The translations under genes and the position numbers were made by a program. A DNA stretch of 64,000 nt from Folioceros fuciformis (lineage: Eukaryota): the NCBI GenBank assembly GCA_049999805.1, contig JBNGIO010006232.1:1-64000 (forward strand). The letters are read 5' to 3'. Below are positions 57,093-59,716 of this stretch, one piece after another. The notes beneath the pieces were generated by a model, which was not told the origin of the DNA, ran no database searches, and was given only the letters and a program-made list of their open reading frames with translations. The first letter of the stretch is position 1, and every line of letters begins with the position of its first letter.

Positions 57093-59716
57093 TCAGAAAA
57101 CGGTGCCACTCGACCGGTGAAAGTGGATGTTTCTCCATTCCCAGACCCCTTCACTGTTCTTCCGCCTCTCCCAGACTCGGGTTTCGTTGTAACTCTGTGT
57201 CTTCCCCTCCTTTCGCACAAGCCTGGTGTAAGTCACTAGACCGGCATTGCCAATTGTCGTAACCTTCGGCGCACATATGGTCGATTGCTCTACACAATGA
57301 GGCCCGCCTTCCAATCCCCCTGACTTCCGATCGAAGTAGTATTTGTGAAATGATAAGCCCTCTACCAGCTGACCTGCAACCGTTGCCAGACTCGGGATGT
57401 CAATAGTCGTGACTCCCCACCGTACCACAGTACATAGCACACCTAAACCCTAAACTCTCGAAACACTCCAAAAAGTGGGCCCAGGACTCCCTCACAAATG
57501 AGAAGGGCCAAACGCTAGCAATGCCTGAGGGGCAAGTCCATAAGCCACTGTCCTCATTGCACAGTGGTCGACACACGACAAACACCTGCATCGTTCGCTC
57601 ATCTTACCTTGCGACTCAGGTTCAAACGCTGTTAGTTGGGCATCACACAGCAGTCTGTAAACCTCATAATCCCCCCGGTCAATCCCATCCAGAAGGCGCT
57701 GGCTGGCTTGCAGCAAGTCATCCTAAAAAAGGAAAAAAAAAGGCATTCTCCCCACAACCGTCAGGTGTATTTTCCAGTCACAGTTGAGCAAAAACAGGAA
57801 GGAAATGCGTCTCTTCGGCTGCACATCTCGTACTCACCATCCACACATGGCTAACCAGTAAGAAAAACAAATGCTCGGAACACCCTTCGAGACGTAAGGA
57901 GCCTTGACAGGGCCCCACAGCTACGGCATTGCCATGGTATAGTTGCAGGACAGAATTCACGTGGGAACCTCAGCTTACTTGAACGAAAGGCTTGAACAAT
58001 GGCTGAATACTGTCGAAAATTTCTTCGACGCTTCTTGTGGCATTGATCTGTCAGTCACAGTGCACTTGTCAGAGCGAACCACTTTGCAAAACAGATTCGG
58101 CAACCTCAACTAGCCGCAAGAGCTGTTGCCACCGAAAACGTGTCTGATGGAACAACCTTACGGACTTTTCCGATGGACTCATAATATTCAACCACCGGAA
58201 GGCTAGATTCAACAAAGACTTTGAACCGCTTCCTGATGGTCTCTATGTTGTCATCAACACGACCCTACAGCAGCGGCAGTCATGCTCTCAGTACCTTCAT
58301 CGTCTTGCAAAACAAGGTCATAAAATGTCAACACCAACATGGCTGAACCTAGTAAACAGACAGTGTACCTGGTTCCGTTGCAGTAAGCGTCGCTCCATCT
58401 CGTCCTCAGGGCAATCAAAAAACAAAATGAATTCAGGGGAAATTCCTGTCTGCACGAGGTTCACAAGTCACATCTCCAGGCAGTAAGAGCAGACACAGAT
58501 CCACGACGTTGCAATGGCGAATCCAGGGCATCTCACTAACCACTCTCTCAAATGCAGCCCGGTTCTCTTCATTTCGGGGGAAGCCATCTATCAGAAACTT
58601 GTCAGTCTTGCTCTGCGCCATAGCTTTCTGGATCAGTTTGACAGTGACCTCGGAGGGCACTATTTTCCCTTCTTTTATCATGTTCTGGATCATCGTCCTG
58701 CGTAATGAAAATCAGATTAAGCTTCGGCATACTCGCTCAGGCAAGGCCCAAGGCGAATGAGGCAAGAATGACTCATAGTCTCATACCCGTTTTCGGAACC
58801 AGAATTGATTTCAGCACGCAATAAATCTCCAGCACTGAGATGCTCGAAGCCATAGTTCTCAACTACTTTTGCACACTGAGTACCCTTCCCACTTCCTGGA
58901 CCGCCTGTTGCAAAGAGCCGGGCAAAAGCTTACCGTGATGACACCACAAAGTGCCGAAACAAGCCGACCTGAGGAACAAATAGCTGGTACAAGATCAGTT
59001 CCTCACCAAGTACAAAAACAATCCTGGGCTTCCTTGCAGCCAGCAAGCTCAACCCGTTGTTGCCATTTGCGATTGACCCATGATTTCCATTCGCGTTTGA
59101 CCCATGGTTGCCATTCGCGATGGAGCCATTCACAGTTGCCTATCATGTGACAACACCGCACGAAGCACACGTGTTAGGTTCAGTTGCTAATCGCACAGAG
59201 TGTACCAATTCTATTCCGCAGCTGACATCACCTCCTCTTTCTCGAGCAGAGGACTGGCGGCGACTCTCGCTGATGTTGAAAACGCCATGAGACCAGCAGC
59301 GGCGAACACCCAAGCAGTTCCCCAAGGAGTCTGTAGGCAGTGATGCGTGAGAATCAACGCTCCGAGCTACAAACGCAAGCACTAAGAAGAGCAGAACTGG
59401 AGACCAGCACACCTTGGCCGCTTCTGACCGATCACTCCGAGAATGCGCTAAGCCTGCTACGCCAGGTCTTTCAGGAACGGGCTGTCCATATACCTGCAAA
59501 ATGCCAACAAGTCTACAGGTCAGATCTACACCTCCACCTTCTCACCGACCCGATCCTCCAAGCATCAACCGAAGAATCACACGGACTTCAAGCAAGAAGC
59601 GCACGTTTAGCTGGAAAACGGAGGATCACCAGTCTCAGCGCAGCAGAGGCAGGCAAAGTAGATAAGCGTCGCCTGAAAGAGCGCCTCAATAGCACAGCCA
59701 GAAGTCCACGTGCCAT
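57093..59716 (-). CDS. UMP-CMP kinase (adenylate kinase family) fused to a C-terminal CaMKII association (hub)-like / NTF2-fold domain, with putative mitochondrial presequence
   Basis: Kinase motifs [35 protein letters not shown] and GRVDDN. Exon 57979-58047 ends ...FKPFVQ|gtaag with no stop and joins in phase 0 to 57722-57608 ([39 protein letters not shown]), then to 57373-57093 ([13 protein letters not shown]...TYTRLV...ETRVWERR...WRNIHFHRS). The 5' exons 59716-59630 and 59493-59413 are in phase but less certain. Confidence 0.85.
59056..59130 (-). repeat. 24-nt coding repeat x3 ([24 protein letters not shown]) just before the kinase domain
   Basis: Visible in both the translation and the DNA (ccattcgcg / ccatttgcg units). 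Confidence 0.8.

Follow-up and report, generated by a model that had tools for sequence, protein, structure and literature searches.

Described relatives and the locus under study

Among the closest described relatives of the gene reported here are the holoenzymes of CaMKII (protein kinase II dependent on calcium and calmodulin) in animals and choanoflagellates (3soa, 5ig3, 5ig5 and 5ig0). Our subject is a minus-strand gene at positions 59716-57093 of a 64,000-nucleotide stretch of DNA from Folioceros fuciformis (contig JBNGIO010006232.1, positions 1 to 64,000; hereafter the window). As in CaMKII, a phosphotransferase lies N-terminal to a C-terminal CaMKII-type hub of the Pfam family PF08332 (CaMKII_AD), and the CaMKII hubs match a hub exon of the window with E values from 2e-11 to 8e-6. 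The catalytic domain of CaMKII is a Ser/Thr protein kinase, whereas the window gene encodes a P-loop nucleoside monophosphate (NMP) kinase of the ADK fold and, unlike CaMKII, has no calmodulin-binding regulatory segment and carries an N-terminal presequence and a hydrophobic helix. The linker of CaMKII is long, variable and flexible, while the connector of the window gene is short, fixed in length and helical in the model. The His and three Arg residues of the CaMKII cavity, as given in the accessible part of PMC8346900, are also conserved in the window hub.

A second set of relatives comprises the stand-alone hubs of green algae (Chlamydomonas 6of9, Volvox and Gonium) and Planctomycetes (10.1101/536094), which belong to the same subfamily; the Chlamydomonas entry 6of9, an 18-subunit assembly, matches with E 3.6e-10. 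In the accessible part of that report (McSpadden et al., 10.1101/536094) the green-algal hubs are about 50% identical to the human hub and form 16-, 18- and 20-mers, and non-animal hubs are described as being 'without associated kinase domains', their function being unclear. The algal stand-alone hubs consist of the hub only, whereas the window hub has a covalent link to an enzyme. The hub of the homologous protein from the moss Sphagnum shares 45-53% identity with many hub-only proteins about 130 residues long.

Eukaryotic UMP-CMP kinases are single-domain monomers of about 190-215 residues, and those of Dictyostelium (1qf9), yeast (1uky) and human (1tev) have P-loop, NMP-binding and LID motifs in common with the window kinase. 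The iota carbonic anhydrases of the LCIP63 type are placed in the same Pfam family, PF08332, but in a different sequence cluster, according to the accessible part of PMC8119650. No paper describing a kinase-hub fusion was found in the literature covered; subscription journals and supplements, including the supplementary figures of 10.1101/536094 and PMC8119650, which may list such sequences, lay outside that scope. What is new is the application of the CaMKII hub scaffold to a metabolic NMP kinase: the proteins are in databases, and the fusion is uncharacterised in the literature found.

Kinase-hub junction and its transcription

It is close to certain that the kinase is spliced in frame to the hub and that the fused gene product is real, because a transcript joint crosses the junction, the same architecture occurs in database proteins and the junction aligns without a gap. 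The gene consists of 11 exons whose boundaries were placed by eye and then set from the transcript contigs of run X1 (Table 1). The joined frame of 1329 nt comprises 442 codons with its sole stop at the very end, and all 10 introns are of the GT..AG type. The order of the protein is an N-terminal presequence, a weakly hydrophobic helix, a spacer, the UMP-CMP kinase, a connector and the CaMKII-type hub.

Run X1 is a public run that was used in the form of Logan contigs and holds half of the words sampled from a 2.8-kb stretch, which is about the exonic share. Its RNA label is a guess, and it was treated as complementary DNA because its contigs remove all 10 introns. Six X1 contigs matched the window at 99% or more and gave ten joints, all of them CT..AC, which is GT..AG on the minus strand. 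The joint between 57979 and 57722, predicted in an earlier sequence-only reading of this DNA, was recovered in X1 (57721->57978, that is 57722|57979); it skips 256 letters at a depth of 343.1, while the depths were 284.4 at the hub-internal joint 57373|57608 and 244.4 at the kinase joints, all contig depths being rough. The hub-internal intron had been placed at 57606|57374 and was corrected to 57608|57373 (phase 1), which leaves the protein the same. An X1 contig of 824 nt joins exon 11 to exon 10 and continues past 56800 as 3' untranslated region (UTR). Runs X2 and X3, from the same study as X1, had next to none of the sampled words and gave no contig matching the gene.

Analysis of the letters on both sides of the fusion intron revealed that the kinase frame and the hub frame are each closed by a stop inside it. 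The last kinase exon had been described as 23 codons at 57979-58047 that end at a gtaag donor with no stop; the exon and its donor were as described and no stop lies within the exon, but past the donor the claim fails, as read-through gives GTA AGC TGA (57978-57970) and the stop TGA at 57972-57970 is reached after two codons. On the other side, the proposed acceptor, a tag at 57725-57723 behind a poly-T tract, was found with the pyrimidine tract CCTTTTTTTTTCCTTTTTTAG. In the hub frame this tag reads as a stop, and entry into that frame from upstream therefore requires splicing. Exons 10 and 11 were both free of in-frame Met codons, in agreement with the earlier view that the hub has no ATG of its own at its start; given this and the tag stop, the hub is not translatable alone. 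A separate hub gene starting inside the fusion intron was considered and rejected, since each ATG there is either in another frame or shut off by the tag stop.

The stop two codons into the intron is also what might be seen if neighbouring kinase and hub genes had been wrongly modelled as one, and the record that bridges the junction has a shorter side of 29 letters, under the 31-letter rule applied to such records, although 29 letters is what a bubble in a k=31 graph yields. Such an artefact is scarcely credible: the hub lacks a Met codon and a stop closes its frame upstream, the joint falls exactly at GT..AG in phase 0, and of 19 divergent fused proteins 18 have a gapless junction, with several such proteins on short transcript-like contigs.

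Next to the spliced fusion transcript, an X1 contig of 315 nt (57693-58007) carries the fusion intron unspliced at depth 76.1, versus 343.1 for the spliced joint; no X1 contig covers any other intron of the gene. There is thus a minority form that retains the fusion intron; its product would be the kinase alone, with QVS-stop as its end. Two hub-less transcriptome proteins, P0107 (Netrium) and P0109 (from an alga), end near the same point as this intron-retained product.

One could suppose that the QVS-stop protein is the working enzyme and that the hub mRNA is a minor, regulatory or decaying by-product. The unspliced contig, with the fusion intron as the sole intron covered, would fit this, as would the ends of P0107 and P0109 at or near the same point and the fact that seed plants do without the hub. 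We hold it to be quite improbable, because the spliced joint is the deeper one (343.1 versus 76.1, in rough depths) and because a hub frame that is intact and conserved from Chara to ferns and a connector of fixed length are unexpected for a by-product.

Kinase domain

Pfam ADK matched three kinase exons (exons 5, 6 and 8, the last with 23.5 bits at profile positions 122-150, which alone is below the cut-off). The window kinase was scanned exon by exon, and full-domain scans were made on the orthologues P0017 (Sphagnum magellanicum) and P0013. In exon 6 the UMP-CMP kinase family model TIGR01359 scored 74.1 bits versus 40.3 for the next model. The orthologues scored 263.4 (P0017) and 259.7 bits (P0013) against a TIGR01359 cut-off of 207.6, and both were below the cut-off of TIGR01360, the adenylate kinase isozyme-1 model; the kinase domain of the window is 80% identical to that of P0013 over 183 columns. 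The closest solved structures to the kinase part of P0017 were the UMP/CMP kinases 1qf9, 1uky and 1tev, with E values from 1.8e-59 (1qf9) to 1.7e-53 across the entire fold.

The P-loop, NMP-binding and LID motifs, including IRKRF, were found in the exon translations of the window and are nearly invariant in the alignment A1; we take GxPGxGKGT to be the P-loop, the conserved Arg to belong to the NMP site and the Arg/Asp cluster to form the LID. The exons upstream of the hub matched ADK and AAA_17 and not Pkinase, so that neither a protein kinase domain (PF00069) nor a calmodulin-binding segment of the CaMKII kind was found. From these comparisons it is highly probable that the gene encodes a complete and active eukaryotic-type UMP-CMP kinase, which would convert ATP and UMP or CMP to ADP and UDP or CDP.

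Connector

The distance from the last kinase strand to the AFEPE motif of the hub was exactly 69 residues in 16 of the 19 divergent fused proteins, as measured by local alignment. Only P0130 has an indel in the connector, an insert of two residues, and the other two deviating proteins have their differences, of +1 and -3 residues, deeper in the hub; the junction was accordingly aligned without a gap in 18 of the 19. In an AlphaFold2 model based on a 20-sequence alignment (mean predicted local distance difference test, pLDDT, 74.8; predicted template modelling score, pTM, 0.70) one helix, residues 277-308, spans the junction with a block pLDDT of 92-95 and joins the C-terminal helix of the kinase to the first helix of the hub. 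The connector is thus short, fixed in length and probably rigid. Its invariant length in these sequences argues for a single origin of the fusion, without proving one.

Hub domain, self-association and cavity

Profile searches bore out the earlier assignment of the C-terminal domain to CaMKII_AD, which had been made from motifs. Both hub exons exceeded the Pfam cut-off of 22.1 bits: exon 10 matched profile positions 4-40 (25.1 bits, E 2.1e-5) and exon 11 positions 41-126 (43.3 bits, E 5.1e-11) of a profile of 128, so that the two exons abut exactly in the profile. Fused homologues scored 50-105 bits over positions 2-128. All 19 solved structures that matched the window hub exon at E <= 1 were CaMKII hubs, from Nematostella, mammals, C. 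elegans, Salpingoeca (S. rosetta) and Chlamydomonas (6of9), and neither a dimeric NTF2-like protein nor a carbonic anhydrase was among these 19. Weak secondary matches to DUF4440 and SnoaL-like models were observed. Identity to animal hubs was 35-43% over about 130 residues. These comparisons place the hub in the ring-forming, CaMKII-type branch.

The same Pfam family raises the question whether the domain might be catalytic, as an iota-type carbonic anhydrase or another NTF2-like enzyme, and not a scaffold: iota carbonic anhydrases, the diatom LCIP63 among them, have PF08332 as their domain too (PMC8119650, accessible part), and the DUF4440 and SnoaL-like matches point the same way. The same part of that source splits PF08332 into two main clusters, iota carbonic anhydrase and canonical CaMKII, and the solved-structure matches fall with CaMKII hubs in 19 of 19 cases; the CaMKII-type C-terminal HFHRS motif is present as in the aligned hubs. 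A catalytic role in place of a scaffold is thus very improbable.

For the hub as a scaffold, a four-copy model of residues 288-432 of the Sphagnum protein gave a score of 0.73 versus 0.49, 0.12 and 0.01 for the controls. The runs agreed in at least 90% of contacts and the pLDDT of the partners was at least 83. Two contacts were predicted, the strongest being a sheet-to-sheet pair and the other, of lateral type, lying between residues 329-347 and residues 368, 400 and 429-431 of another copy. In the calibration, which was made with two copies, 21 of 30 solved homomeric pairs attained the mark, as against 0 of 23 single chains. From homology and this model we judge it likely that the hub assembles into a large ring. 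Of the earlier proposal that the kinase is displayed on a CaMKII-like ring, the fusion and the identities of both domains were supported, while the ring is drawn from homology and the four-copy model.

The main competitor is a real fusion in which the hub is a module for dimers or small oligomers, or a ligand-sensing regulatory domain packed on the kinase. In the accessible part of PMC9120016 the solved bacterial members surveyed in the PF08332/NTF2-like superfamily were 11 dimers versus 7 holoenzymes; the strongest contact predicted here is the sheet-to-sheet dimer, conserved columns are not over-represented at the predicted interface positions, a short connector of fixed length would suit an intramolecular arrangement of kinase and hub, and the His/Arg cavity is conserved. 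We nevertheless regard this arrangement as unlikely, since all 19 solved relatives form rings and dimeric NTF2-like proteins were not among the matches at E <= 1, since the hub is 35-43% identical to animal hubs, a level close to that of the green-algal hubs that form 16-20-mers (10.1101/536094, accessible part), and since a second, lateral-type contact was also predicted.

Whatever the assembly, the His and three Arg residues of the cavity are present in the window and are conserved in A1 with values of 0.95, 1.0, 1.0 and 0.85; they lie in the motifs FH(K/R)FYF, YTRL, ETRVW and HFHRS. In CaMKII-alpha the ligand contacts are His395, Arg433, Arg453 and Arg469 (PMC8346900, accessible part). We infer that the window residues correspond to these from the motifs and from the 20-residue spacing of the first two Arg residues in P0017.

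Relatives and evolution

A search among longer proteins with the 93-residue hub exon found one match among 25 candidates, P0001 of Adiantum nelumboides, which carries ADK and CaMKII_AD. Because later searches found many fused proteins, this lone match showed the poor sensitivity of the 93-residue exon and not the rarity of the architecture. The hub region of P0001 was then used as a query and gave 44 proteins: 20 with ADK and CaMKII_AD, 18 with an animal-type protein kinase (PF00069) and CaMKII_AD, five with the hub only and one with the hub and a response-regulator domain. The 20 fused homologues carry PF00406 and not PF00069. The architecture that the sequence-only reading had suggested looking for elsewhere is therefore present in 20 of 44 hub-bearing proteins, and all ten distant representatives have both domains.

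The fused set of 20 includes proteins of Adiantum (two species), Ceratopteris richardii, Calypogeia fissa, Riccia (two species), Marchantia paleacea and Sphagnum magellanicum and also a Mesotaenium-labelled record (Mesen1); eight of the 20 are on contigs of 1.5-1.9 kb and are transcript-like. No named seed plant was found among the 44 hub-bearing matches. An exhaustive search with the Sphagnum protein gave 27,309 relatives, with multi-kinase proteins heading the best 150; ten matches spanning both domains in a single stretch were looked at in detail, among them proteins of Closterium, Chara braunii, the heterotrophic stramenopile Cafeteria and environmental eukaryotes.

The window protein can be aligned with such proteins from one end to the other; it is 64% identical to the Calypogeia protein over 393 residues and 59% identical to the Sphagnum protein over 450 residues (2-438 against 6-428). 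Compared over their whole length with the first sequence of A1, fused proteins from Chara to ferns are 46-66% identical, with the hub frame intact. Judged by these sequences, the architecture of kinase and hub is widespread among non-seed streptophytes, occurs in some other eukaryotes as well, and is a feature of a family and not peculiar to one genome. Fused proteins with both Pfam domains are already in public databases, some of them named 'UMP-CMP kinase' by UniRef or by the Joint Genome Institute (JGI). In relatives from seed plants (Taxus, Persea and Solanum records) the protein stops shortly past the last helix of the kinase.

Three records with other arrangements were also observed. For P0018 (Selaginella moellendorffii, 277 aa) and P0015 (Diphasiastrum, 207 aa) Pfam lists the hub only. 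P0018, named CaMKII gamma subunit in its source, aligns with 35% identity over 309 residues to the window protein, starting at residue 137, and its kinase part may be degenerate or mis-modelled. In P0044 (325 aa) a CaMKII_AD hub is joined to a response-regulator receiver domain (PF00072), which makes it another non-animal hub fusion.

The kinase-domain tree comprised 67 rows, was made by a quick method and is unrooted, and its transcriptome rows are possibly truncated. Streptophyte sequences formed one group, with a Shimodaira-Hasegawa-like approximate likelihood ratio test (SH-aLRT) value of 94; the hub-less seed-plant kinases adjoined the fused fern clade, and the fused bryophyte and streptophyte-algal sequences were positioned outside. 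The simplest reading of this topology is that the hub was lost in the line of seed plants. Environmental fused proteins made up a second, starred group (SH-aLRT 95) together with Cafeteria and a cluster that has a Picozoa-labelled member. The hub is carried by 34 of the 67 rows and its presence changes at least eight times in the tree, gains and losses being inseparable without a root.

The hub tree (71 rows, 131 columns, quick method) likewise grouped the fused hubs of streptophytes, with an SH-aLRT of 90 that is unstarred, and its deep forks were unresolved. The non-plant fused hubs were on long branches, and the hub tree is compatible with one origin of the fusion or with several.

N-terminus and alternative 5' exon

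The first 56 residues of the protein contain 11 Arg and Lys versus 3 Asp and Glu and are rich in Ser, Ala and Leu; the N-terminus aligns from residue 2 to residue 6 of the Sphagnum protein P0017. Downstream lies a weakly hydrophobic segment of 19 residues, which was matched by tblastn in P0017, P0019, P0013 and P0010, forms a conserved block in A1 and is common to moss, liverwort and fern proteins and a hub-less kinase of a prasinophyte. In the AlphaFold2 model of P0017 a helix of low confidence was placed at residues 59-75, within 106 residues that are otherwise disordered. The usual Kyte-Doolittle threshold for transmembrane segments is about 1.6; the maximum mean of the segment over 19 residues is 1.28, and a transmembrane reading was rejected as this is under the threshold. 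The spacer between the segment and the kinase is acidic or of low complexity. In the window it includes the Asn/Gly-rich stretch of exon 4 (59060-59139), which is absent from 11 aligned homologues. As the sequence stands, the chance is about even that the N-terminus is an organellar presequence, for the mitochondrion or the plastid, followed by a helix that would associate with membranes or serve in sorting.

A second 5' end was deduced from a loose contig end of 26 letters at 59495, which is the reverse complement of 60101-60076. No in-frame ATG was found among the 92 open codons upstream, and the first in-frame Met of the resulting form would be located within the hydrophobic segment, so that the protein made from it would lack the presequence. 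The contig with the ATG exon has a depth of 59.7 versus 244.4 for the gene body.

Features of the gene and its surroundings

The coordinates of the exons, of the fusion intron and of the alternative 5' exon are given in Table 1.

Table 1. Features of the kinase-hub gene, in window coordinates
Feature	Position	Strand	Description
Exon 1	59716-59630	-	ATG 59716-59714; 29-residue presequence rich in Arg/Ser/Ala/Leu; joint 59493|59630 in X1 contigs
Exon 2	59493-59413	-	Remainder of the N-terminal extension; X1 joints, GT..AG introns
Exon 3	59330-59232	-	Conserved weakly hydrophobic 19-residue segment at 59324-59268
Exon 4	59139-59007	-	Asn/Gly-rich low-complexity linker, then first kinase strand KPRIVFVLG; X1 joints
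Exon 5	58904-58787	-	P-loop and start of NMP-binding region; Pfam ADK 58.2 bits, E 1.4e-15; X1 joints
Exon 6	58697-58541	-	Kinase core and part of NMP-binding region; Pfam ADK 47.2 bits; TIGR01359 top match
Exon 7	58449-58369	-	Kinase, 27 residues; tblastn 67-85% identity to six fused homologues; X1 joints
Exon 8	58264-58157	-	Kinase LID and core, ends GKVRK; weak donor AAG|GTTGTT; joint 58047|58157
Exon 9	58047-57979	-	Last kinase exon, 23 codons (69 nt) in phase 0; encodes the kinase's C-terminal helix, ends PFVQ
Fusion intron	57978-57723	-	256 nt, phase 0, GTAAGC…TTTTTTAG
Exon 10	57722-57608	-	First hub exon; CaMKII_AD 25.1 bits; X1 joints on both sides
Exon 11	57373-57093	-	Second hub exon; HFHRS motif; CaMKII_AD 43.3 bits; stop TGA 57095-57093
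Alternative 5' exon, end	60101-60076	-	Ends GATTGCCAAG|gtgagg; joined directly to exon 2 (59493), skipping the ATG exon

The upstream neighbour, at 60614-61576 and beyond on the minus strand, is a citrate synthase gene represented by its 3' part and identified by Pfam Citrate_synt matches on two open stretches (E 3e-22 and 5e-8). About 900 nt separate its stop from the ATG of the kinase gene downstream, and the alternative 5' exon is situated in between. Just past the 3' UTR of the kinase gene, the region 56000-56400 is very AT-rich and of low complexity, while the gene has about 49% G+C. The window contains four assembly gaps, each a run of exactly 100 N, at 2270-2369, 14931-15030, 36294-36393 and 63193-63292.

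Proposed assembly and biological meaning

Taken together, it is fairly likely that the locus is one 11-exon gene for a 442-residue protein, composed of presequence, helix, kinase, connector and hub, that assembles as a ring. The hub would form a two-layer ring of about 12-20 subunits, like its animal and green-algal relatives, and the ring would bear a crown of NMP-kinase domains in fixed orientation, by which a normally monomeric enzyme would become a large particle with many active sites. The N-terminus may send or tether this particle to an organelle, mitochondrion or plastid, where the many N-terminal helices could give membrane avidity and the ring could concentrate pyrimidine-nucleotide phosphorylation. 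The conserved cavity of the hub, with its His and three Arg residues, could accommodate an anionic ligand. With the fusion intron retained, the kinase-only product would result, and the alternative 5' exon may lead to a form without presequence, so that the gene could make ring-bound and free forms as well as targeted and untargeted forms.

Several observations weigh against this account. The transcript support for the junction comes from one run, X1, whose RNA label is guessed, and the shorter side of the fusion joint, 29 letters, is below the rule of 31 for bridging records. One of the two scanned kinase exons of the window slightly favours TIGR01360 over TIGR01359 (68.5 versus 62.3 bits). 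The hydrophobic segment is weak, with its Kyte-Doolittle mean of 1.28, and the location of the protein is a guess. As to the ring, the complex model may owe its score to solved CaMKII hubs that the predictor has memorised and was calibrated on two copies, and the predicted interface positions were not enriched in conserved columns in one-sided Fisher tests (p 0.49, 0.06 and 0.18), conserved columns making up 16 of 40 interface positions versus 37 of 97 others (p 0.49) and 10 of 17 versus 43 of 120 (p 0.06). The Pfam family PF08332 also holds dimers and enzymes (PMC9120016 and PMC8119650, accessible parts), and a short rigid connector may be sterically hard to fit with a closed two-layer ring.

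A broader scenario, which we offer as speculative and improbable in its full form, is that an NMP kinase carried on a CaMKII-type ring through a rigid helical connector was present in an early eukaryote, predates CaMKII and survives in streptophytes, Cafeteria and other protists. The ring would couple 12-20 kinases allosterically, and this coupling would be gated by an anionic metabolite, possibly a nucleotide, that binds in the conserved His/Arg cavity of the hub; holozoans would later have swapped in a protein kinase, and seed plants would have lost the hub.

The CaMKII hub is the textbook scaffold that turns a kinase into a signal-integrating machine. The fusion gives the non-animal hubs a concrete enzymatic partner in non-seed plants, in streptophyte algae and in at least one heterotroph, and constitutes a natural experiment on the effect of ring display on an enzyme that is monomeric elsewhere. 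It also raises the questions of the organellar supply of pyrimidine nucleotides in bryophytes and ferns and of the reason for the loss of the hub in seed plants. All these points are within reach of ordinary biochemistry in tractable models such as Marchantia, Physcomitrium and Ceratopteris.

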